Shown here: positions 21,347 through 55,478 of the stretch, one piece after another
How positions within the stretch are numbered: the stretch's first letter is position 1
Layout of the letters: each line of letters starts with the position of its first letter
IMG/VR virus record: IMGVR_UViG_3300023440_000003
Coordinates: 1 to 64,000 of that record
Direction: 5' to 3' (one strand)
Origin: a virus
DNA: 64,000 nt
Made by a program: the position numbers and the translations under genes
Notes under the pieces: generated by a model
Told to the model about the DNA's origin: nothing
The model's database searches: none
What the model saw: the letters and a program-made list of their open reading frames with translations, nothing else

Positions 21347-24300
21347 TTATGGCCTCTTAGGTTCAAAAGGTTTAATATTGGATATTATATTTTCCATACT
21401 GGCTTGTTCTGGTTTAAATTCATCTATGTTTGTTACTGGCACACTTAAGAGACCTGTTTCTAGATTCATCGAAAATAATCCTCTGTAGCTTCCACCATAT
21501 TTCATTGGTGATATATCTAATCGAATTTGTCCTTTGCCTGGCTTTTTTGTAATAGTGTATTTATCTGGTGCGCCACTTGCCGTTATAAATTGTTGTAATT
21601 TTCTCTTTATCATATCTCTAGCTTCGTCGATAGTTCGTTTTTTCTTTAAATAGCCTATGACATAAAAACCTCTTCCTCCTGAGAATCTAACTTCCACTTG
21701 TTTAATGTCTGGATCTTTTTTCATGAAATCTCTTACCTTTTTTGTTACTTCTTTGATTTGATCAAAATCTACATCAGGCCCTGGATCGATATCTACAACT
21801 AATCTATCAGTTATAGCACCAAATGATGGATGAAATTCTACAGTTCTTCTTTCAATCCAGTATTGAAAGTCTTCTGGATTGTCTACATCTCCTTTATGTT
21901 GTTTTATTTTTATTTTTTCTTCATCTATATTACGTCTTAGTACTATCCTGGAAGGATCAAATGCTTGCATTACAATTACCTGAGGGAATTGTTTCAATTC
22001 ATTAAGAAGATTTTTTCTGATTTTTGGTTGCATATAGAGTAAGAATATATCTCTTTTGGTAAAACTACCGAATGGTGCGTCTACTATGATATTATCCCAT
22101 CTTTCTGGATCGGGAGTTTTTGATGCTACTTTTTCTATAAATTCTTTGCCCTTTTCAGGATGCCATCCTATAAAAACTGGCTGTCTAAGTGCTCCATCGG
22201 GGTATTGTCCGGCTGCTCTGATTTTTGCCACTCGACCTATATATTTTTCTGGATGTTCTGCCATATCTTTTCTTTGTTCCATTGTAAATCCTGCACCTAC
22301 TCTTCCTACCACGGGCCCGTTAGGTTCGAAAGAGTATTCTATACCTCCAGCATATTTGCCTCTCCAGTTTGGAGAAGAGGATTCAAAGATACCTACTACA
22401 TAAACATCATATTCAGGTTTGAATTTTGCTTTTACAGGTTTTTCTACATCTTCGAGATTTTGTATTACTATACCTTCTTTAGATTCAGGTATGGATCCGG
22501 TACGTATTGCATCAAAAAGCATTTGCTTTTCTTCTTTGGTAAACGCTGCTTGTGGAGGTTCTGCATAAGGAAAGTGTTGAACGAATTCATTAATCAGCCT
22601 TAGTTTTTCTTTGTAAGGTAATTCTTTTTCTACATATTGGTCTTTAAATTTTACAACATCAAATACCGTAAGGCGGGGCTGGACTTTTTTGCTTTCAATA
22701 AGTTTTCTACTTATTGGAGTCTCGCTATGGGTAACACTTACTATTTCATTAATTGGTTTAGCCTGTCCTTTTTCATCTGTAAGAAAAAGTTCGGCTCTGA
22801 ATATACTTCCTTTGAATGATGAAGGCACTTTGAATTTTCCATAAGGAGGAACTTTATATGTATGTTCTATTAATCCCGTACTTGTGCTTACAGCCCATCT
22901 TGGTGAAAAGAGCTTGACTTTACCATCTGGTTTTACATAAAGAAGAACTTGTACACCATCATCTTTTCTGGTAAATATGTATCTATCATCATTTAGGAAT
23001 CTTTTAATTGCTTCTTCTGGAGTTATTTCTTTGTATTTTTCTTTACCTTCCGGAAGGTCCAGTAGTTTATCTCTGGTATCGGTAACATTTATCATGTACC
23101 AGTTATCACCTTGACCTTTAGTTAACAGGTATTCTTGAGTTTCATTTGCTCGATATATGTTGAATCTTATATGAGAATCATCTGCACTTAAGATGTCAGC
23201 TTTACCTCTGAACTCTATGGTTACTGTTCCTGCACCATAGTATCCATCAGGAATGCGTCCTGAAAAATTCATATAGTCCATTGTGTGATCTGGTTGTCTT
23301 ATGAATAATCGACGTTCTCCTGGCATAGGCCAGTATCTTCCCGCCCAACTGTAAGCTATTTTTGTTTTAGGATCTCCAAGTCTGAAATCGAGGTGGCTAT
23401 TCGATACAAGCAAACTGCCTGCAAAGTAATTATGATTATCTTCTACTTCAATATCATATCGTTCTAGTGGTTTTGACGGATTTACTTTTATATACTTTAT
23501 CTCTCTGATAGGTACAGGCAATAAGGTCATTTCATTATGCGTTGCAGCTGTCCAGTTGTAATATCCTATTTCATCTAAAGGACATTTATATTCCATGCCT
23601 TTAGCGATGTAAGGAGCTACTAATTTTAGGAATCTTTCTATACTTTTTTTCCTGTTTATGGAAATATAGTAGTAGGTTTTGCCGTTAGGATAAGTTCTAT
23701 TTCTTAGAGTAGCGTGGATTTCGTATTTTTCTCGTAGCCATGTAATAATAAGTTGTACATCTTCTTTAGGAAAGCCGAGAGTGTGTAAGAGTATTTGCTG
23801 ATGCGGACTAATTCTTTTTCCTCGGTCTGATCTAGGTCTACGTTTGTATCGAGCTGAATGTTTAATAACATAGTCGCCTCCCGGAACATATTGACCATCA
23901 TCCATATACCATACTGCTAATGCTCTTTCGTCTATCATATCTAATATTTCCTTAGTGATACGTTTCTTGCCGTCTTTGTATAAGATATTTCTGAGTAGAT
24001 AAAACCATGGATGTTTTATTCTGAAATAGTAATAGTCTTGTCTTTTGCCTTTACCTTGTCTAATTTCGACGTCCATTTTAAACGTTGGAGAGAGAAGTTT
24101 GTAACCAAAATCGAAATACTCTTTGTTGACTTGTCCCCAATTGAATGTCCAAGGAGTAGTCTGCGGAATAGACCCATCACCTAATAGCGCACCTAAGATA
24201 AATTGTTTTTGATCTTCTGTTAAATTTTGCACAGGCATCAACATATAATCCCCTTTACGAACATCTTTAGCCAGTTTTGGGATAATTTTTCCATCCACAT

Positions 24301-24778
24301 ATACATACACTTTATGGTTTCCTGTCAGTGTTATTGACCCACGTCTCGAGTGGAATCTAAGTCTTATCCATTCAGTGGATGTTCCATTTTTATACCAGTT
24401 AACCACCCTTTTCCATTCCAGTTTACCTGTTCTAAAATTGTAGCTTAGGACTTTTATAGGTAGACGTTTGTTGACTATTTCTTGAATTCTTATTCTTCCC
24501 TTGTCAGTGATAATTCGTGTGCCTCCCGTCAAACATCCAGCACGTTTAGCATTATGCTTTTGAATGACGCATTCCCATTCTACTGGCGGATCATCAGGTC
24601 CAAGTTTTATAGTCGGAATTGGGGATTTTTGTTCAAAATTTATAATTCCAGTTATAGCAGTATCATTGTATCTGGATTGTGCTCTCTGTATTAATTTATC
24701 CGCTTCTTGCAATAATGGGTCTTCAAGTACAGCCAGATTGTTTAGATTTTCCGCTATTTTAGTTAATTTTTTCCACAT
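21347..24778 (-). CDS. ligD: LigD-like NHEJ enzyme (phosphoesterase, ATP-dependent ligase, primase-polymerase) with intein
   Basis: PE domain VIQKHNAKRAG/SHLDFRL; ligase RKDDG, EGIVI, KAK, GRVGAG, LRQPVF; Pol domain DRLVVDIDP, SGGRGFYV. Confidence 0.85.
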   Translation of the reverse strand: MWKKLTKIAENLNNLAVLEDPLLQEADKLIQRAQSRYNDTAITGIINFEQKSPIPTIKLGPDDPPVEWECVIQKHNAKRAGCLTGGTRIITDKGRIRIQEIVNKRLPIKVLSYNFRTGKLEWKRVVNWYKNGTSTEWIRLRFHSRRGSITLTGNHKVYVYVDGKIIPKLAKDVRKGDYMLMPVQNLTEDQKQFILGALLGDGSIPQTTPWTFNWGQVNKEYFDFGYKLLSPTFKMDVEIRQGKGKRQDYYYFRIKHPWFYLLRNILYKDGKKRITKEILDMIDERALAVWYMDDGQYVPGGDYVIKHSARYKRRPRSDRGKRISPHQQILLHTLGFPKEDVQLIITWLREKYEIHATLRNRTYPNGKTYYYISINRKKSIERFLKLVAPYIAKGMEYKCPLDEIGYYNWTAATHNEMTLLPVPIREIKYIKVNPSKPLERYDIEVEDNHNYFAGSLLVSNSHLDFRLGDPKTKIAYSWAGRYWPMPGERRLFIRQPDHTMDYMNFSGRIPDGYYGAGTVTIEFRGKADILSADDSHIRFNIYRANETQEYLLTKGQGDNWYMINVTDTRDKLLDLPEGKEKYKEITPEEAIKRFLNDDRYIFTRKDDGVQVLLYVKPDGKVKLFSPRWAVSTSTGLIEHTYKVPPYGKFKVPSSFKGSIFRAELFLTDEKGQAKPINEIVSVTHSETPISRKLIESKKVQPRLTVFDVVKFKDQYVEKELPYKEKLRLINEFVQHFPYAEPPQAAFTKEEKQMLFDAIRTGSIPESKEGIVIQNLEDVEKPVKAKFKPEYDVYVVGIFESSSPNWRGKYAGGIEYSFEPNGPVVGRVGAGFTMEQRKDMAEHPEKYIGRVAKIRAAGQYPDGALRQPVFIGWHPEKGKEFIEKVASKTPDPERWDNIIVDAPFGSFTKRDIFLLYMQPKIRKNLLNELKQFPQVIVMQAFDPSRIVLRRNIDEEKIKIKQHKGDVDNPEDFQYWIERRTVEFHPSFGAITDRLVVDIDPGPDVDFDQIKEVTKKVRDFMKKDPDIKQVEVRFSGGRGFYVIGYLKKKRTIDEARDMIKRKLQQFITASGAPDKYTITKKPGKGQIRLDISPMKYGGSYRGLFSMNLETGLLSVPVTNIDEFKPEQASMENIISNIKPFEPKRP
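23399..24535 (-). mobile_element. LAGLIDADG intein in the LigD PE domain (379 aa)
   Basis: Starts CLTGGT; block B TGNH; LGALLGDG and WYMDDG; ends YDIEVEDNHNYFAGSLLVSN|S. Confidence 0.9.
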
Positions 24779-45604: not shown

Positions 45605-46855
45605 TCAATTTGCATTTGTACACAAAATTAATACTTTATCTGGATACTTTGAATGTCTAAACACTAATATTTGAACAAATCCTGATATATTTCGTGGGGT
45701 TAGTATTATTTTTTGAGTTTTGGGGTTAAGTTTCTCTAAAAGTGCACTTATCTTTCTATACAAGGCTATATATTCTGTGGTTGACCCCAGTAACCTGAAG
45801 CCTTTATTATATAGCTTTTTGATAAGATTTCTTAAATCGTCCTTATATTTGTATTGTATTATTGCTATGTTTATATCTGGCTTATTTATTTCAGCATTCT
45901 CGAAGAATCTGTCGTATAGGTGAATGGTATGTCGACCATAAAGTTCAACGCCAGCACTTTTTGCTGCCCATAATATAGGGTTTATGTATCCATAATAACC
46001 GTTCTTTTTATTATGGTCTCTTTCTTTATCTAAAAATACAGCAGCTTTTTTGGATAATGATCTGGGAAGTTTTAACATTACTTTATCGTCAGTTTTTACG
46101 AAATATAATCCAAGAAATTTGAATTCCTCATTTTTCCTTATTGGTGTGATACGGATCTTAAATTTATAACGTCCAAATACAGACTTAATGTAGTTTATGA
46201 TTTTTTCATCACTTAAACTAGATTGAACTCCTATTAAAAAATCATCAGCATATCTGAATGTCACCATCGATAGCGATCTATTATATGCTTTTGTAATCAC
46301 ATTAAGTCTGTAAGTTAAGCCCGTAGTAAGTATTCCGGCAAGTATAGGTGATGTAGGTAATCCATAAGGGATATGACCATTTATGAAACAATACGTTTTA
46401 ATTACGTCTATGAATCTATCTATATCCATACCTAACTGCAACTTATTTACCTTAGCTATAAAATTTATTGAATCGTCCAATGCGACGTCATAAGTTTCAT
46501 ATAATTTTTTTGGGAGAACATATTTATATAGGTCTAATCTGTCAGGAGTTATTGATTCGAAGTAATTTATTACATCCACTTTAAAAAATCTTCTGTCATC
46601 TTGCAGTATATGAAAGAGTTGTAGGAATTTTTGGCCTGAATGTACTGATGAGATAGCGAAATCAGTACAGTTAGTTTCGACATATTTTAGATATATGATG
46701 TAGTGTGTACTTAGAGTGTTATGCAAAATTTTTAGAACTTTTTCGTAAGGACCTAACGGTATATATATTTTTTTAAACTTATCTTTCTTCTTTATTTGTC
46801 TGACTCTATACACTTTGGGTATTTCTTTCTTGAAAATTTTTGTTTCAAACTCCAT
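45605..46855 (-). CDS. reverse transcriptase (retron-like, unclassified)
   Basis: KVDVINYFESI, HIPYGLPTSPILA, FRYADDFLI, FKFLGL; SD AGGAGGTG. Confidence 0.85.
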   Translation of the reverse strand: MEFETKIFKKEIPKVYRVRQIKKKDKFKKIYIPLGPYEKVLKILHNTLSTHYIIYLKYVETNCTDFAISSVHSGQKFLQLFHILQDDRRFFKVDVINYFESITPDRLDLYKYVLPKKLYETYDVALDDSINFIAKVNKLQLGMDIDRFIDVIKTYCFINGHIPYGLPTSPILAGILTTGLTYRLNVITKAYNRSLSMVTFRYADDFLIGVQSSLSDEKIINYIKSVFGRYKFKIRITPIRKNEEFKFLGLYFVKTDDKVMLKLPRSLSKKAAVFLDKERDHNKKNGYYGYINPILWAAKSAGVELYGRHTIHLYDRFFENAEINKPDINIAIIQYKYKDDLRNLIKKLYNKGFRLLGSTTEYIALYRKISALLEKLNPKTQKIILTPRNISGFVQILVFRHSKYPDKVLILCTNAN

Positions 46856-46899
46856 GCATCACCTCCTTTTCTACTTCTTATATCTCTAAATATGCTAAA

Positions 46900-49800
46900 A
46901 TGTTCAAAGAAATGGTCAAGGAATTCATTCAATTTGTCAAGTCAGTATTTCCGATAGCCACACAGAATCGTGAGATTAAACTGGATAATGTCTATACAGA
47001 TGCTTCCAAAATACCCGATGTATCTGATTATCAAATCCAAAAAAGATACAGACTTGAAGGCCGAAGTTTAAGTGTACCGGTTTATGCAGATTTTACTCTG
47101 TATGAAAAAGGCAAAGTTGTTGCTAAAGCACAGAAGTTGCTAATCGCTCGCGTACCGTTAAAACTTCCTAGAGGAACTTATCTGTTTAAGGGTAATGAGT
47201 TCTTTGTTGCAAATCAGCTTCGTTTGAAGCCAGGAATTTATGTCAGAATTAGAGAAAACGGAGAAGTGGAGGCCCATTTCAATTTAGCTAAGTGGACTTT
47301 TAAAGCTTATTTTAATGGAAGTAAAGTTTATGCTAAGTTCACAAGAGGTCCTGCTATACCTTACTATACATTACTGAAGCTATTTGGTGCTTCTGAAGAT
47401 GAGATTAAAAATGCATTTGGCGAACTATATAATGAGAACATTTTATATGACGAAGATGCTATTCTTGGGTGGTATCGTGCATATTATGGAGAAGGTACTA
47501 AGGAAGAAGCTGTAAAAACATTCAAAAGTATATTATCCTCCGGTTACAGGTTTGATCCGGAAATTTCCAGGCATCTTTTAAATATAGAAGCATCAAACAT
47601 TAATAAAGATGTCCTGCTTGCAGCTTTAAAAAAACTTATCGCAGTACGGAGAGGTGAGAAAGAACCTGATGATAGAGATGCTTTGTTTTTTAAACAGCTA
47701 TTGGAAGAAAGCGATATATTAAGTGAACATTTTCATAATATGAAATCAAAAGTTATTTTTAAAATACGAAGAAATCTAGTATTAAAAGACAAAATAAGAG
47801 ATATTGTTCCTATAGCTGTATTTCAGAGTGTTGTAGACAATGTTTTTACTAAAGATCTTGTAAATCCTTTAAAGCAAACAAATCCAGTAACCATTGCAGA
47901 AAACAATTCCAGAGTAACTATTTTTGGAGAAGGAGGTATTAAGTCAGAATATGCAGTGCCTTATCAGGCTAGAGCACTTAATCCGTCGCATTTTGGTATT
48001 GTAGATCCAGTAAGGACTCCAGAATCTTCAAAGGTAGGGGCTGTATTATTTAGAACAATTGGAGCTGGTAAAGATCCGAAGACTGGTCTACCAGCAACTG
48101 AAGTTTTAGATGTGAAAACAGGAAAGCTTAAACGGATAACATCAACTGAATTTTTTAATTCAAGGGTTGCTTTTCCTGACCAAATTAAAGAAGTAAAAAA
48201 TGGTAAGGTAGTTTTTAAGAACAAGTCTCAGGTAAAAATACTATACCGTGGAAATATTGAAATAGTTCCTGCATCTAAAGTGGATTATGTTGTGCCTAAC
48301 TACATGAATGTTTTTACTGTTTCGACCCTATTTTTACCTTTTTTACAATCATTACACCCTAACCGTGCTTCTAAAGCAGCAAACACCATAACACAAGCAC
48401 TTCCATTAAAATACAGGGAACCTCCTTTGGTCCAAAGCGCAATATCAGAAAATTTATCTATGGTGGATATTGTAGGCAGGCAATATTCAGTGAGATCTCC
48501 TGTGGATGGAGAGATAAAATCGGTTAAGAATAATGTGATAGTCATCAAAGATAAAAAAGGAAAAGAGCATAAAATATCTTTAGCTGATTATCTTCCATTG
48601 AACCAAAATAGTTTCATCTCTATGGAAATTAAAGAAAATATAAAACCTGGCGTAAAGGTAAAAAAGGGAGATTTGCTGGCAGATACTAATTTTACAAAAG
48701 ATGGTCAGTTGGCGTTAGGAGTGAATGCTATTACTGCTTTAATGCCGTTCAAACATTTAAATTTTGAGGATGGTATTGTGGTATCAGAGTCTTTTGCTAA
48801 AAAGCTTACTTCTCAACGTTTATTTCACTTTCGTTATCCTTTAGGTTCTGATGTAAAAATTGACAAAGAACTTTATCGATCACTTTATCCTCATGAATTA
48901 CTTGAAGACAATTATAAAAAGTTGGATGAGGATGGAATAATAAAGAAAGGAGCAGTAGTTAAAGATGGTGATATATTAATAGCGGGCTTAGTAAAAAAGA
49001 AGGAAAGTAAAATAGACGAAATAATTGCTCGGTTAAACAGACGTTTAGTTCAACCCTGGGTAAAAAAGCCATTAATTTGGGATAAAGAGTTTGATGGCAT
49101 AGTAAAAGACGTAATTAAGACAAAACAGTTTATATCTATAACTGTTCTTACTGAAGAACCAGCAATAGTTGGAGACAAATTGACAAACTCTCATGGTTCA
49201 AAAGGAGTCATTGTGCACATAATTCCTGATGATCAAATGCCTAAACTTCCGGATGGTCGAACTGTAGAGGTAATCATAAATCCTGTCTCTATTCTTGGAA
49301 GAAATAATCCATCTCAGGTTTATGAAATGGTAGCTGGAAAAGTAGCTGAAAAACTAAAACAGCCTTTAAAAATTCCAGCATTTGGAGTAGATGACACTCA
49401 TAAGTTATTAAAAAATCTCACCAAACAATATGGGGTTTCGGATACTGAAACTTTAATTGATCCAGTTACCGGAAAGAAAATCCCCAATGTTATGGTTGGT
49501 CCTATGTACATTTATAAACTGGAACATCAAGTAGAAGAAAAAATGTCAGCCAGATACAAAGGAGCCTATGATCAGTGGGATATGACTCCAGCAAAAGGTG
49601 TTGATGAACCTGGACAGGCTGTAGGGCTTATGGAAATATATGCTTTATTGGCTCATGGTGCAGGAAATGTATTAAAAGAAATGGCTACATGGAAGTCAGA
49701 GCGTAATCCTTTATTCTGGGAGGCCATAGAAAATAACTTACCTCCTCCGCCCCCAAAGACTACATTTGTTACTAAAAAATTCGAGAACTTATTGAGAGCT

Positions 49801-52800
49801 GCTGGAATTGATGTAAAAAAAGAAGGGCATCTCGTAAGGATAATGCCACTTACTCAAAGCCAGGTTAAATCTCTCACACAAAATCGTTTCATAAAAAATG
49901 CCAAGATGGTAGTAGCTGGTACTTTAAAAGAAGAAAGTGGTGGTCTTTTTGATCCAGAACTAACTGGTGGTTTACGTGGAGATAAATGGGCTGCTATTAA
50001 GTTACCGGATAAGTTACCTTCACCTATCGTATTGCGTGTGTTTAGCTTATTATTGAATATGAAAGAAAAAGATATTAAAGATATAATTCTTGGTGTTAAA
50101 AAAATTCAGGGAATGTCTGGTTCTGAAGCTATTCTCAAACTGTTAAAGTCTAAATCTTTAGACGAATATTTGAAGCAAGCTCAGGATATGGCTGACGTAG
50201 CTAAGCGGTCTAATAATTTGAACGAGTTAAATAAAGCTAACTTGATTATACGTTTTATAAAATACATGAAGGAGAATAACATTAAATGGGAGGAATTCTT
50301 TCTCGATCGCTTGCCGGTACTCCCTCCTCAATTCCGTCCTGTGTATGTTGATAAACATAACAGGTTATTTCATTCAGATTTTAATCTTGTATACAGAGAT
50401 ATTAAATTACTGGCGGACCAGATCCAGAGAGCAAAGCAGGAAGGTTTACCTGAAGACGAGATTAACAAAATGAAGAAAGATTTATATGAATCTATTGAAA
50501 TTCTGTATGGTCTGGCGGATCCTTCTTCTAGATATTATGGTAAACGTAAACCCAGAGGAATACTTGACTACATTCATGGACCAAAACCTAAAGAAGGTTA
50601 CTACCAGCACAAAGTACTCCGTAAAACTCAGGATTTATCTGGACGCTCTGTTATTGTTCCTAATCCTGGCCTCCATCCAGATGAAATCGGTATCCCAGAG
50701 GAAATGGCGTGGAAGATATTTGAACCTTTTATTTTAGCTAAACTTAAATCAGAGTTTGCTATGTCTCCTGCTGAAGCAAGGATCGAACTGGCTAATCGAG
50801 GTGATAAGGCCAGAAAAGCTTTGGAATTGGTCGCCAGCGAACGGTTAGTTATTGTTAATCGCGCACCTTCACTTCATAAATACAATATGCTCGCTTTTAA
50901 ACCTAAAATTGTTCCAGGACATGCTATACATTTTCCAAACGTCGTAGTATCTATGCAAAGTGGTGATTACGATGGCAACTCGTTAGCTGGTGATGAATAT
51001 GTGATTTATTCGTTGAAAGATGAAATATATTTTCGTCCTATTAAAGACTTTCCTAGGGAAGATTCTCCGTACAAGATTAGTAAAAGAGGTGTTAAATATT
51101 TTAAAGTTCCACCAGGCATCAAGGTTCTTGCCTATGATTATAATACAAACACCTTGAAGTGGGATAAGGTCAGTAGTTTTAGTGAACATCCAGTTCAGAA
51201 AGTTTATAAAGTTAAGACTTATCATGGAGCTTCGGCTGTAGTTACTGGAGATCATTCTTTACTTGTTTTTGATCCAAGAGATTATACTTTCAAACGTATG
51301 TCTCCTTTGGAGATAATGCGTAATAAAAACAGGCGTTTTTTTGTGGTCAGACCTAAGAAAATTCGTCCTCTCGTAGAGGTTCCGCGTATAAAATTAGGCG
51401 ATTTGGAGTTAGATTTGGATTTTGAACTTGGTTATTTAATTGGATGTTATGTTGGGGATGGTTGGGTTGACAATCGGAATGGTTTTTACATTGCTAGTAT
51501 GGATAACGGAATTTACGGTAAGCTTAAAAGACTAATAAAGCGGAAATTTAATGTGGCTATGAAAGCTAGAAAAGCTGTAACCAAGATTTTTAAGGGTTAT
51601 GAAGCAACTTCTAGAAAGTTATACGCTAATTTACCTAAGGAATTCAGACGATTTTTAAAAGAAAATTGTGGAAGCAAAGCTAGTGATAAAAAATTACCTT
51701 CTCCTATTTACTTTTGTTCGCCTGTTATTTTCAGATTAGGATTATTATCTGGTTTACTTGATACGGATGGTACAGTGCATCAATCTTCTGAAGGTAGGTT
51801 CACTATCCTTTATAATACTATTTCTGAAGTTTTAGCAGATGAAGTTAGAATATTAGCTCTTAGTCTTGGTATCAGATCTACGATTAAAAAGGTTAAGAAT
51901 ACAGATGGTGTTGAGTATTTTCAGATTATATTTTCCTGCAAGGATTTAGCTGAAGCTGTTTTTGGAAAAGGTATACACCTTAGACTATATCATACAAAGA
52001 AAAAGAAGATTCTGAGTAAGCTTTTTGAAGTAAAGCGAGATAAACGTTTCAATGGCAGTTTGTTCAATATTGTTCCTATATCTGAAGAGTTAATATATCT
52101 TTTGAATTATTCATATCGAAAAGGTTCTAGATTTTCAGCTGATTTCATCTTAGATACTATTAAGCGTGAATACGTTCCGAAGGAAATGATATCTTCTATA
52201 TTACATAATGTTCATCCTAGACATGAACATTTAAAAAAACAGTTCGAGTTACTTAAAGCTTTTATAGAGACAGATGATGTATGGTTTGATTTTATTACAG
52301 AAGTCATTCCGCAGCAGGAAGTTCCTACCTATGATTTAACTACAGAATCTAAGACTTTTCTGTGTGGTATAGATTTCATAGTTTATGATACTACTGCAAT
52401 ACATGTTCCAGTAACTCAAGAAGCTCTGCAGGATGCAGTAAAGCTTTTACCTTCTCAGAATTGGCTTCATGAGGGGCGTCCTAAAGAAATATGGCTTACG
52501 CCAAAGATTGAAGCAATATGGGGGCTCTATAAAATAACCCGAGACGGAAAAGATAAAAGCAAACAGTTTAAATTCAATAATGTAGATGATGCATTACGTG
52601 CTTTTCACAGAGGTGATATTGACATTACGGATACTGTTGTGATTAATAATCAAAAAACTACTTTAGGTAGAGCCTTAGTTAACCGTATTTTACCTAAAGA
52701 TTTCAGAGATCCTAATATTAAACTAGACAAAACCACTATAAATAAATTGATGCGGAATATTTTTGAAAAATATGGCGGTAAAGAAGGTGCCAGGGTTGCA

Positions 52801-54432
52801 GGAGAATTGAATAAACTTGGAGGAGATTTTGCTTATCTTATCGGATTTAAATTGTCTTTAGATGATTTTAGTCCTAAATTTGAGGATTTATTGGACAAAG
52901 CGTTTGTAGAATCGCTTAAAACTAAAGATCCATCAAAAATTAACCGTAAGGCTATGGAGCTGCGTCAAAAAATAATGAAGTCTTTAATGAAGCAGGATGA
53001 TAACACTTTGGTACAATTAGTTAAATCCGGTACACGCGCTAAAAAAGATTCCTTAATGCAACTTTTAGCTTCGCCAGTACAGCTTGCTGATGTATATGAT
53101 CGTCCAATTCCTGTAATAGTTCCAAGAGGATATGCTAAAGGTATGGACACTATTGATTACTTATTTGCTTCTTATGGTGCTAGAAAAGGAGCGATAGAAA
53201 AAACAGTTAAAACAGGGGAACCTGGAGAGCTTTCAAAAGAACTTGTTGCTGCAGCGATAGATTATGTAATAACTATGGAAGATTGTGGAACTAGAAAAGG
53301 AATCGTTATGGATGTGGATAAGGCAGATGCTTTAAACAGAGCTTTAGCAGAAAATGTGGTTAAAAATGGTAAGATTATTGCAAAACGTAATGAGATAGTT
53401 GATGGTAAAGTATATGAAAAACTCAAAGAATCAGGAGTGAAACAGGTAAAGGTAAGATCACCTTTGACATGTGAAGCCCCTGATGGTATATGTGTGTTAT
53501 GTTATGGTGCTAAACCTGATGGCACAATGCCTCATATAGGAGAATACGTAGGAATTAAGAGTGCACAGTATTTAAGTGAACCTGTAACACAGATGACTAT
53601 ATCTTCTGTACATACTGGTGGACTTGTTAAAGATATGGGCACTTCTTTTCAGGATATTAGAGCCGTAATGGAAATGAGTAATGTGCCTGCTAGAGCCACG
53701 GTTGCTAAAGTTGCTGGCAAAGTAGAAAAAATTGTGAAACGGCCAGAAGGCGGATATGAAATAATAATAGATGGAAAATCTCATATCACTTCTCCATGGG
53801 TTGAACCTAAAGTTAAAGAAGGAGATGAAGTAGCCAAGGGTGATATTTTAACTACTGGTTTACCCCATCCAAAAGATATCTATGATGCCGCAGGCTTGGA
53901 AGCTGCACGTAATTTTGTAGTGAATTATCTTGATACTGCTTATCAACAAAATGGTATGAAGTTAGACAGGCGTCATTTTGAAATTATAGGCAAAGTTATG
54001 TTTGATACAGCTGTTGTTACTGATCCTGGTGACACGGATTTAGTTCCCGGAGATTACGTTAAAATTAATAAACTCAAAGCTTTAAACGCACAGATGCCTC
54101 CAGAAATAGACGTATCTTTAGAAGACGCAGCAGGTAGAATCTTGGCAACTCCTGTAGATAAATATCCTGCAGGTACTAAGTTAACTTCTGAGATAATAGA
54201 TGATTTAAGAAAGAAAAAAATAAAAACCGTAAAAGTTAGAAGCAAGCCAGCATCATTCAAACCCGTAGTTAAAGGTATAGAACAATTGCCATTGCTTCGT
54301 GATGATTGGCTTACAAGAATGGCTTATAGAGATATTAAAAATACTGCTATAGAAGGGGCTCTACGTTCATGGAGTTCTGACTTACAAGGCTACAGTCCGA
54401 TACCAAAATTAGTGTATGGAGAGACTCCATGA
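46900..54432 (+). CDS. rpoBC: fused beta-beta' DNA-directed RNA polymerase with intein
   Basis: beta: DPVRTPES, NFEDGIVVSE, GDKLTNSHGSKGV, YKLEHQV, GLMEIYAL; beta': LPVLPPQFRP, SGRSVIVP, NRAPSLHK, GDYDG, GARKG, RSPLTC, EPVTQMTISSVHTGG; one ORF; start 46900 or 46912. Confidence 0.93.
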   Translation: MFKEMVKEFIQFVKSVFPIATQNREIKLDNVYTDASKIPDVSDYQIQKRYRLEGRSLSVPVYADFTLYEKGKVVAKAQKLLIARVPLKLPRGTYLFKGNEFFVANQLRLKPGIYVRIRENGEVEAHFNLAKWTFKAYFNGSKVYAKFTRGPAIPYYTLLKLFGASEDEIKNAFGELYNENILYDEDAILGWYRAYYGEGTKEEAVKTFKSILSSGYRFDPEISRHLLNIEASNINKDVLLAALKKLIAVRRGEKEPDDRDALFFKQLLEESDILSEHFHNMKSKVIFKIRRNLVLKDKIRDIVPIAVFQSVVDNVFTKDLVNPLKQTNPVTIAENNSRVTIFGEGGIKSEYAVPYQARALNPSHFGIVDPVRTPESSKVGAVLFRTIGAGKDPKTGLPATEVLDVKTGKLKRITSTEFFNSRVAFPDQIKEVKNGKVVFKNKSQVKILYRGNIEIVPASKVDYVVPNYMNVFTVSTLFLPFLQSLHPNRASKAANTITQALPLKYREPPLVQSAISENLSMVDIVGRQYSVRSPVDGEIKSVKNNVIVIKDKKGKEHKISLADYLPLNQNSFISMEIKENIKPGVKVKKGDLLADTNFTKDGQLALGVNAITALMPFKHLNFEDGIVVSESFAKKLTSQRLFHFRYPLGSDVKIDKELYRSLYPHELLEDNYKKLDEDGIIKKGAVVKDGDILIAGLVKKKESKIDEIIARLNRRLVQPWVKKPLIWDKEFDGIVKDVIKTKQFISITVLTEEPAIVGDKLTNSHGSKGVIVHIIPDDQMPKLPDGRTVEVIINPVSILGRNNPSQVYEMVAGKVAEKLKQPLKIPAFGVDDTHKLLKNLTKQYGVSDTETLIDPVTGKKIPNVMVGPMYIYKLEHQVEEKMSARYKGAYDQWDMTPAKGVDEPGQAVGLMEIYALLAHGAGNVLKEMATWKSERNPLFWEAIENNLPPPPPKTTFVTKKFENLLRAAGIDVKKEGHLVRIMPLTQSQVKSLTQNRFIKNAKMVVAGTLKEESGGLFDPELTGGLRGDKWAAIKLPDKLPSPIVLRVFSLLLNMKEKDIKDIILGVKKIQGMSGSEAILKLLKSKSLDEYLKQAQDMADVAKRSNNLNELNKANLIIRFIKYMKENNIKWEEFFLDRLPVLPPQFRPVYVDKHNRLFHSDFNLVYRDIKLLADQIQRAKQEGLPEDEINKMKKDLYESIEILYGLADPSSRYYGKRKPRGILDYIHGPKPKEGYYQHKVLRKTQDLSGRSVIVPNPGLHPDEIGIPEEMAWKIFEPFILAKLKSEFAMSPAEARIELANRGDKARKALELVASERLVIVNRAPSLHKYNMLAFKPKIVPGHAIHFPNVVVSMQSGDYDGNSLAGDEYVIYSLKDEIYFRPIKDFPREDSPYKISKRGVKYFKVPPGIKVLAYDYNTNTLKWDKVSSFSEHPVQKVYKVKTYHGASAVVTGDHSLLVFDPRDYTFKRMSPLEIMRNKNRRFFVVRPKKIRPLVEVPRIKLGDLELDLDFELGYLIGCYVGDGWVDNRNGFYIASMDNGIYGKLKRLIKRKFNVAMKARKAVTKIFKGYEATSRKLYANLPKEFRRFLKENCGSKASDKKLPSPIYFCSPVIFRLGLLSGLLDTDGTVHQSSEGRFTILYNTISEVLADEVRILALSLGIRSTIKKVKNTDGVEYFQIIFSCKDLAEAVFGKGIHLRLYHTKKKKILSKLFEVKRDKRFNGSLFNIVPISEELIYLLNYSYRKGSRFSADFILDTIKREYVPKEMISSILHNVHPRHEHLKKQFELLKAFIETDDVWFDFITEVIPQQEVPTYDLTTESKTFLCGIDFIVYDTTAIHVPVTQEALQDAVKLLPSQNWLHEGRPKEIWLTPKIEAIWGLYKITRDGKDKSKQFKFNNVDDALRAFHRGDIDITDTVVINNQKTTLGRALVNRILPKDFRDPNIKLDKTTINKLMRNIFEKYGGKEGARVAGELNKLGGDFAYLIGFKLSLDDFSPKFEDLLDKAFVESLKTKDPSKINRKAMELRQKIMKSLMKQDDNTLVQLVKSGTRAKKDSLMQLLASPVQLADVYDRPIPVIVPRGYAKGMDTIDYLFASYGARKGAIEKTVKTGEPGELSKELVAAAIDYVITMEDCGTRKGIVMDVDKADALNRALAENVVKNGKIIAKRNEIVDGKVYEKLKESGVKQVKVRSPLTCEAPDGICVLCYGAKPDGTMPHIGEYVGIKSAQYLSEPVTQMTISSVHTGGLVKDMGTSFQDIRAVMEMSNVPARATVAKVAGKVEKIVKRPEGGYEIIIDGKSHITSPWVEPKVKEGDEVAKGDILTTGLPHPKDIYDAAGLEAARNFVVNYLDTAYQQNGMKLDRRHFEIIGKVMFDTAVVTDPGDTDLVPGDYVKINKLKALNAQMPPEIDVSLEDAAGRILATPVDKYPAGTKLTSEIIDDLRKKKIKTVKVRSKPASFKPVVKGIEQLPLLRDDWLTRMAYRDIKNTAIEGALRSWSSDLQGYSPIPKLVYGETP
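50980..52389 (+). mobile_element. LAGLIDADG intein inside the RNAP catalytic motif, Ser start and Asp end (470 aa)
   Basis: DYDGN|SLAGDEYV; block B TGDH; LIGCYVGDG and LSGLLDTDG; block F TYDLTT; IVYD|TTAIHVP. Confidence 0.88.
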
Positions 54433-55478
54433 AGATAAGGGTTGCAGAGATTATCTTAGTAGATACACGCAAGGGTAAATTAAAGGTAAAGTGTCTTGAT
54501 AACGAAGAGTTATTCACCATCACCAGAATGGCTGTGATACTTGGATCTTCTAATTATTATTCTGGTTTTTTTAAATATCCAGAGAAGGGCGATAGAGTGC
54601 TGTTATTAGAACAGGAAAATGATCCTGATCCTGTTATCTTACCAATATTTGTACCTGAATCTAGGATAATGTTCGAAGATGAAGATAATGAATTTTATCT
54701 TGTGGAATTGCTTCATTTAATAAACAATCTGGATGCTCAGCCAGGAGATTATGTGATTTATGGAAAAAATGATAATTATGTAATAGTTCGGGCGAACGGT
54801 AATATTATCTTTAAGACTGGCTTTACTAAAGTATTAATGTCCGCTTCCATTAATATAGGAGGTTTTTATACTGATGCTATGAATTTTATATTTAGAAGCC
54901 ATTTAGGTTTATTTGCGTTGAAATTACTTTATAATAGAAACGTTGGACCTTCAGCTATTTTTGAAATCAATCAGCCTCCCAATTTATCTGGCGATTCTCC
55001 ACTTGTTGCATTTAAGGCTGGCAATACTATAAAGAACTTTTTAAGCTTTGAACTTGATAGAAATGACGGAAGTATTAGGTTGTATTCTGATAGTTTTACT
55101 ATTAAAATAGATTCTGATGGTAATCTAGAATATGAAACTGAAGGGAATAATAAAGTGATTATTCGTCAGAATCTAGATCATACTATTGAAGGCAAAGCCG
55201 ATTTAAGAGTTAAACAAGATATATCTACTCAGGTATCTGGAAATGCATCTATTCAAACGTCAGGAGACATGAATATTAAAAGTAAGGAACTGGTTATACA
55301 AGTTACAGGTGATGCTGTGATCAAAGCCACCAATGCTATAGTGGATGCAACTACTGTTACCCTAGGGAAATCGCCTCAATCGCCTATAGTTACGGGATTT
55401 CCTGATGGAACTATGCCAGTGTGTTATGTTACCGGAGCTCCAATACAGGGAAGTACTACATGTAAGGCAGGAAAATGA
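54429..55478 (+). CDS. baseplate central spike (gpV/gp5-like)
   Basis: N-terminal OB-like region with PEKGDRVLL, repetitive beta-strand C-terminal half, C-terminal CYVTGAPIQGS; overlaps the RNAP stop. Confidence 0.65.
   Translation: MKIRVAEIILVDTRKGKLKVKCLDNEELFTITRMAVILGSSNYYSGFFKYPEKGDRVLLLEQENDPDPVILPIFVPESRIMFEDEDNEFYLVELLHLINNLDAQPGDYVIYGKNDNYVIVRANGNIIFKTGFTKVLMSASINIGGFYTDAMNFIFRSHLGLFALKLLYNRNVGPSAIFEINQPPNLSGDSPLVAFKAGNTIKNFLSFELDRNDGSIRLYSDSFTIKIDSDGNLEYETEGNNKVIIRQNLDHTIEGKADLRVKQDISTQVSGNASIQTSGDMNIKSKELVIQVTGDAVIKATNAIVDATTVTLGKSPQSPIVTGFPDGTMPVCYVTGAPIQGSTTCKAGK

Follow-up and report, generated by a model that had tools for sequence, protein, structure and literature searches.

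The 64,000-nucleotide stretch of viral DNA analyzed here (positions 1 to 64,000 of the IMG/VR virus record IMGVR_UViG_3300023440_000003; below, the window) is a portion of a 79.6-kb record with a CheckV completeness of ~44% that, with its genes for a large terminase, a helicase, a clamp loader, and a ligase, looks like a tailed phage. On its plus strand the window carries a gene for an RNA polymerase in which the β and β′ parts are fused into one chain, and an intein interrupts the metal-binding loop of the β′ part. The residue that immediately precedes the intein is an asparagine, encoded at the position of the third Asp of the DxDGD motif, one of the three aspartates that are invariant in multisubunit RNA polymerases (PMC5856549). 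Comparison with homologous polymerases, described below, suggests that this asparagine is an evolved state found next to one type of intein only, and that it may be converted to aspartate with the participation of that intein.

The open reading frame of the polymerase extends from a TTG codon at 46840 to 54432, with the likely start at the ATG codon at 46900 (gene 46900–54432, plus strand, 2510 residues), where the database copy of the protein (P0006, 2510 residues) also begins. Once the intein is removed, the chain is ~2040 residues long and contains both β and β′. Its Pfam domains comprise Rpb2_6 and Rpb2_3, as well as Rpb1_1/2/3/5, with a match to LAGLIDADG_3 (8.6e-15) in the middle of Rpb1. 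The active-site motifs NFED, GDK, KLEH, NRAPSLH, and HTGG are all found in the translation, in agreement with the first-pass annotation of this DNA, which was made from the sequence alone and considered the active-site motifs outside the loop to be intact. Apart from the DxDGD triad, every signature motif and Pfam domain of β and β′ is present. In place of the triad, the gene encodes the loop D-Y-D-G-N (50965–50979, plus strand), in which the third ligand position is occupied by Asn1380 (codon AAC, 50977–50979), referred to below as Asn(-1). No second RNA polymerase gene was found in the 79.6-kb record.

The intein (50980–52389, plus strand, 470 residues) combines a HINT domain for splicing with a LAGLIDADG homing endonuclease nested in it. 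With arrows marking the two splice junctions, the translation reads ...VVVSMQSGDYDGN↓SLAGDEYV...GIDFIVYD↓TTAIHVPVT. The N-terminal nucleophile, Ser1 (TCG, 50980–50982), opens block A (SLAGDEYV), and block B (VVTGDHSLL, 51238–51264) includes Thr89 at position B:7 and His92 at position B:10, with the block positions named according to a review (PMC4031507). The homing endonuclease core (51427–51777) is delimited by two LAGLIDADG motifs, LGYLIGCYVGDGWV (51427–51468) and LGLLSGLLDTDGTV (51736–51777), which terminate in ...VGDGW and ...DTDGT, respectively, and thus provide the two helices with acidic ends expected of a predicted endonuclease of this family. Block F, TYDLTTESKTFL (52327–52362), contains Asp452 at F:4 (52333–52335) and Lys458 at F:13 (52351–52353), a position usually occupied by His. 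The C-terminal junction (52384–52392) is formed by Tyr469 and Asp470 (GAT, 52387–52389), followed by Thr+1 (ACT, 52390–52392), the first residue of the C-extein TTAIHVP; all of these elements lie on the plus strand. Excision of 50980–52389 leaves a loop equal in length to the D[FY]DGD-T-x-x-x-H-V-P segment of intein-less homologues.

The insert and the 10 residues on either side of it were modeled with AlphaFold2 from an alignment that included 37 homologues; the model has a predicted local distance difference test score (pLDDT) of 88 and a predicted template modeling score (pTM) of 0.88, and helices corresponding to both LAGLIDADG motifs are visible in it. A Foldseek search with this model returned the TliVMA intein (7qss, E 5e-23) as the top match, followed by PI-PkoII (2cw7), PI-PfuI (1dq3), and PI-SceI (1vde), with E values between 5e-23 and 1e-12 for the set; the fold and domain plan of all four are alike to those of the model. 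By sequence, the nearest protein with a solved structure is PI-PkoII (5e-10), and the Pfam match to Intein_splicing is weak and below threshold. The modeled fold matches that of HINT domains, and the insertion is in frame at a conserved site at which 90 intein-less homologues close the loop exactly. The presence of an intein in the catalytic loop, with the junctions GDYDG-N↓S...VY-D↓T proposed in the first-pass annotation, is thus borne out by the translation, the codons, the model, and the structural matches. The guanine and cytosine content of the intein (0.33) is near that of the gene (0.36), which argues against a recent import from a source of different composition.

The residues expected of a class 1 intein are present at positions 1 and +1 (Ser1 and Thr+1, where Cys, Ser, or Thr is required) and in block B (T89-G-D-H92, with Thr at B:7 and His at B:10), whereas His F:13, His G:6, and Asn G:7 are replaced by Lys458, Tyr469, and Asp470, respectively. 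Changes at each of these three positions are tolerated in some known inteins, and a terminal Asp or Gln is able to cyclize and cleave the C-terminal junction (PMC4031507). Two other classes were considered and rejected: class 3, since F:4 is Asp in 130/130 inteins of the family described below, with no Cys at F:4 (the WCT triplet), and Ser1 is present, as well as class 2 (the KlbA type, with Ala1 and direct attack by Cys+1), since Ser1 and Thr+1 are found here. Judged by its predicted residues and modeled fold, the insert can be taken as a genuine mobile intein, of the class 1 type. With the four LAGLIDADG inteins named above, all of class 1, it shares Ser1, Thr B:7, His B:10, Asp F:4, and Thr+1; it differs from them in having Lys rather than His at F:13, Tyr rather than His as the penultimate residue, and Asp rather than Asn as the last one, and also in that, at position -1, a catalytic residue of the host enzyme has been replaced. 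A terminal Asp is also found in the Chy RIR1 intein. Like other inteins that end in Asp or Gln (PMC4031507), the intein of the window would cleave its C-terminal junction by cyclization of a residue other than Asn, but in the family to which it belongs the Asp end is fixed across 75 cluster representatives, and Asn(-1) occurs only together with it. To our knowledge, the inteins with terminal Asp or Gln described until now do not alter a catalytic residue of their hosts.

The alleles of this site were collected from metagenomic phage polymerases. A word-indexed search with the N-extein yielded 113 homologous phage polymerases, and an exhaustive phmmer search with the intein and its 60-residue flanks yielded 2108 hits, 146 of them below 1e-30; the best 150 of these hits were taken, each standing for a 50%-identity cluster, although the clusters cannot be counted as independent of one another. 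Junctions were located by pattern matching and then curated by hand, with five mis-parsed rows dropped and 37 proteins, mostly truncated ones, left unresolved. Curation resulted in 130 inteins inserted exactly at the site seen in the window, together with 90 intein-less alleles.

Three of the four possible combinations of residue -1 with the last residue of the intein are found in this set. Asp(-1) accompanies an Asp-ending intein in 56/130 alleles and an Asn-ending one in 55/130, whereas Asn(-1) accompanies an Asp-ending intein in 19/130 (the window and 18 other clusters) and an Asn-ending intein in none (0/130). Every one of the 90 intein-less alleles has D[FYVHIL]DGD, as the first-pass annotation had predicted, and none has the DxDGN that would have spoken against its proposal. 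Its further expectation, that intein-bearing alleles would consistently combine Asn(-1) with a terminal Asp, was correct in that this combination recurs in 19 cluster representatives, but not in its generality, as Asp(-1) is kept by 56 alleles with Asp-ending and 55 with Asn-ending inteins. Thr+1 is present in 130/130 intein alleles, compared to 54% of the intein-less ones at the same position; the terminal Asp is kept in 75/75 representatives of the Asp-ending class; Asp at F:4 is invariant; and position 1 is Cys, Ser, or Thr among the Asp-ending alleles aligned at that column. The inteins of this site form a large, apparently undescribed family specialized for the metal loop of RNA polymerases, with the insertion site DxDG[D/N]↓T, and they illustrate the co-evolution of an intein with its host site.

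If the change from Asp to Asn were neutral for the enzyme, it should also appear among the 90 intein-less alleles and the 55 alleles with Asn-ending inteins, and it does not. The closest polymerase to that of the window, P0007, is 59.7% identical to it over 2038 extein residues, but its intein belongs to the other class, being Asn-ending with Asp(-1), and is 32% identical to that of the window over 335 residues. Thus, related exteins carry inteins of different classes, and the identity of residue -1 follows the class of the intein rather than the lineage of the polymerase. The intein of the window is a singleton in the collected set, with its nearest relative at 32% identity. No cultured phage carrying it was found among 50,697 phage records, and a search of IMG/VR with the N-extein returned one distant relative only.

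Trees were calculated from the intein sequences without position 1 and the last two residues, with FastTree for 130 rows and with IQ-TREE for 81 rows. All Asn-ending inteins fall into a single clade (support 100), and the rest of the tree is Asp-ending. Asn(-1) requires four changes on these trees, at least three of which are forced by well-supported branches, and every one of them falls among the Asp-ending inteins. The largest lineage with Asn(-1) is a deep clade in which each of the 16 cluster representatives has both Cys1 and Asn(-1), which indicates that Asn is maintained there and not merely tolerated. Block B of this clade reads S-D-N-E, and B:10 is accordingly Glu in 15/19 Asn(-1) alleles, all of them members of this clade. 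The second lineage is P0224, the sister of which, P0140, has Asp (support 100); the third is P0124, with the Asp-bearing sister P0120; and the fourth is the window itself, situated on a long branch. A link between Asn(-1) and Cys1 was also looked for, but the independent contrasts show no consistent direction for it.

Residue -1 covaries with position F:13 of the intein. Lys or Arg is found there in 16/19 Asn(-1) inteins and in 0/111 Asp(-1) inteins, with Tyr or Trp occupying this position in most inteins that combine Asp(-1) with an Asp end. The carriers of a basic residue are the Cys1 clade (Lys), the window (Lys458), and P0224 (Arg, as against Tyr in its Asp(-1) sister). In phylogenetically independent contrasts, basic F:13 shifts together with Asn(-1) in three of four cases and in the opposite direction in none. 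It seems that the splicing machinery includes residue -1.

After removal of the inteins, 216 exteins were aligned, and 239 columns at least 80% conserved among the Asp alleles were compared. The column of the third aspartate contains Asp in 197/197 alleles other than those with Asn(-1) (86 aligned intein-less alleles, 55 with Asn-ending inteins, and 56 with Asp-ending inteins) and Asn in all 19 alleles with Asn(-1). It is the only one of the 239 columns that deviates in all Asn(-1) lineages, and no other conserved column was found to be altered in at least three of them, so that no compensating change is visible in this set of columns. Hosts with Asn(-1) keep the consensus at a median of 92% of the 238 other conserved columns, compared to 90–92% in Asp hosts; the polymerase of the window, at 89%, is within the range of the Asp hosts. 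A pseudogene was considered as an explanation and rejected, since extein conservation equals that of the Asp hosts. Since the conserved columns are kept as they are in Asp hosts, and no column changes together with the third aspartate, the polymerases with Asn(-1) appear to be functional and show no sign of adaptation to a different ligand. Taken with the distribution of alleles and with the tie to basic F:13, this points to Asn(-1) as an evolved, selected state confined to Asp-ending inteins, and we are confident both that the intein is real and that its Asn(-1) has been selected.

A nucleophile placed directly after residue -1 and a Thr placed directly after the terminal Asp are the arrangement of canonical steps 1–3, and the first spliced product should thus be DYDG-N-T, with Asn at the position of the third catalytic Asp, in accordance with what the first-pass annotation had deduced for standard splicing. 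To judge from the conserved residues, Ser1 would form an ester at the carbonyl of Asn1380, Thr+1 would take over the N-extein, and Asp470 would cyclize to an anhydride, assisted by Lys458, which stands in for the usual His at F:13, with release of the intein. The mature enzyme might then regain its carboxylate through a step dependent on the Asp-ending intein. We infer that the aspartyl anhydride of step 3, which acylates far more readily than the succinimide usually formed and lies, in the branched intermediate, within a few bonds of the side chain of Asn(-1), could acylate the neighboring Asn(-1) amide to give an imide. Once this imide is hydrolyzed, the polymerase would be left with Asp, and the nitrogen would end up on the C terminus of the intein. 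By another route, with the same outcome, the intein would promote deamidation of Asn(-1) via a succinimide. We assign a probability of about 0.4 to the conversion of Asn(-1) to Asp in a manner dependent on the Asp-ending intein. That Asp-ending inteins edit their hosts in one of these two specific ways, by taking the nitrogen of Asn(-1) through the anhydride and imide or by promoting deamidation, with Asp appearing only upon splicing, is a more tentative proposal.

Two other explanations find little room in these data. The first-pass annotation had suggested that the intein might be removed in a register shifted by one residue, so that Asn(-1) would leave with the intein and the last Asp of the intein would become the third ligand, yielding DYDG-D-T directly. 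Such a register gives a perfect product for every Asp-ending allele and would explain why the terminal Asp is invariant (75/75) but residue -1 can be either Asp or Asn, as expected if the former were the residue of the polymerase. It is, however, disfavored by the chemistry of both junctions: since the nucleophile (Cys, Ser, or Thr) comes immediately after residue -1, it is the carbonyl of this residue that is activated in the acyl shift, and the residue itself ends up in the product, whereas the Thr that follows the terminal Asp in every intein allele, and in only about half of the intein-less ones, marks the bond cut in step 3. Moreover, the last residue of an intein excised in this way would in most members be Tyr, Trp, Phe, or Gln, unable to cyclize, and we know of no chemistry that would activate the Gly-Asn bond. 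A shifted register is therefore very unlikely. An artefact, either AAC read in error for GAC or a decaying or dispensable polymerase, is at least as improbable. The window intein is indeed a long-branch singleton, and a record only ~44% complete could have a second polymerase outside it, but the same Asn stands beside Asp-ending inteins in 18 other 50%-identity clusters, which makes a sequencing error unlikely. The window in addition has Lys458 at F:13, where a basic residue is restricted to Asn(-1) alleles, and this lysine is the best internal evidence that Asn(-1) evolved and is not a base-calling error. As for decay, the frame of 2510 residues is open, with the consensus kept at 89% of the 238 columns, and the homologous enzyme of phage Arash is the most-detected protein of the virion proteome (PMC10585845).

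The more serious rival of the conversion is canonical splicing with the Asn retained, followed by function of the polymerase as DYDGN, with the amide oxygen of the Asn ligating Mg-A. A moderate catalytic loss would in this case be offset by better splicing, for example by less N-terminal cleavage than with Asp(-1), and such a trade-off would account for the purging of Asn wherever an Asp-ending intein is absent. This explanation, which we regard as possible but rather doubtful, needs the fewest new assumptions, has every residue for canonical steps 1–3 in place, and agrees with the stability of Asn across the deep 16-member clade. It has to contend with the Asp found in all 197 other alleles, in a triad otherwise invariant, and with the lack of any compensating change in the other conserved extein columns. 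Substitution of Asp by Asn or Ala at the metal ligands of two-metal polymerases costs orders of magnitude in rate, which also weighs against a retained Asn. Several points, in turn, count against the conversion. We know of no precedent for the conversion of Asn to Asp in protein splicing, and the chemistry outlined above is our own proposal. The covariation with F:13 might be explained without any conversion if Asp(-1) were the general acid of step 3 and, with Asn in its place, this role fell to Lys or Arg at F:13, a plain catalytic reading that also suits a retained Asn. A sign test on four contrasts cannot reach significance (p 0.25), and under an approximately unbiased (AU) test a tree uniting the window with the 16 members of the Cys1 clade is still acceptable (p 0.25). 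The window may thus represent a deep, divergent member of the Cys1 lineage rather than a fourth origin; it departs from that clade in having Ser1 and in retaining the His of block B. The sequence data do not separate the conversion from a retained Asn, and the slight tilt towards conversion is due to the absence of a compensating change in the polymerase, together with the general knowledge of two-metal polymerases.

Few residues in biology are as invariant as the third Asp of DxDGD, and Asn is encoded in its place only beside one type of intein; the aspartate is either restored during maturation or dispensable for the enzyme. If the conversion takes place, protein splicing would rewrite a residue, which would represent a new post-translational chemistry in which an intein writes an active-site residue of its host; the polymerase would be catalytically masked until spliced, and the reaction might provide a tool for traceless unmasking of Asp from Asn. 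If instead the Asn is retained, a multisubunit RNA polymerase would operate with two carboxylates and an amide, changing the view of what is essential for two-metal catalysis.

Inteins have been described in the large subunits of other RNA polymerases, including Mja rPol A′ and A″ and Nph rPol A″, as well as the eukaryotic RPB2, RPA2, and RPC2 (PMC1635734). They are likewise found at highly conserved sites near the active center of multisubunit enzymes, but the hosts described here are, unlike theirs, single-chain β–β′ enzymes of phages. A literature search found no paper placing an intein within the NADFDGD loop. The polymerases of Salmonella phage Arash (Gp206 and Gp216) and of Vibrio phages D69, D181, and D148 are homologous to the enzyme of the window (~30% identical over 76%) and have a DYDGD loop. 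In contrast to the fused enzyme of the window, they are split ~85 residues after the loop, and they keep the Asp and have no intein in the loop. The rank of Arash Gp206 as the most-detected protein of the virion proteome, mentioned above, suggests that this polymerase family is virion-associated. In D181 and D148, a free-standing homing endonuclease is located inside the polymerase gene region.

The 55 Asn-ending inteins that share the insertion site (P0007, P0019, P0022, P0133, and ~50 more, with the C-terminal junction ...LSN↓T) lack the N-terminal nucleophile. At position 1 they mostly have Gln, Asp, Leu, or Glu, Cys being found there in just three of them and Ser in two, and their block B, D-D-D-R-A-V, contains neither Thr B:7 nor His B:10. 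Position F:4 is Asp, which distinguishes this clade from class 3, F:13 is Glu (Glu or Asp in 54/55), and residue -1 is always Asp. By these features the clade seems to fit no described intein class, and we can speculate that in it Asp(-1) itself activates the junction.

A member of the same family as the intein of the window is found at another position in P0162 (residues ~1490–1975), four residues upstream, after the first metal-binding Asp. Its junctions, GFNLD↓SMLGEIF...IALYD↓SDGDTVNFHVP, again combine Asp(-1) with an Asp-ending intein, which suggests that this family needs an Asx residue at -1. Five other polymerases (P0128, P0147, P0148, P0204, and P0073; 3000–3760 residues) exceed by 500–1700 residues the length expected for one intein; they hold further intein-like segments elsewhere, or inserts of ~1000 residues in the loop, which may be nested elements.

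The stop codon of the polymerase gene of the window and the start codon of the gene that follows it (54429–55478) overlap in the sequence ATGA. A second intein is found in the window within the gene for an ATP-dependent DNA ligase (21347–24778, minus strand, 1143 residues). This intein (23399–24535, 379 residues) is an ordinary one, with Cys1, a block B of TGNH, a LAGLIDADG domain, and the end ...LLVSN↓S, and it serves as an internal control.

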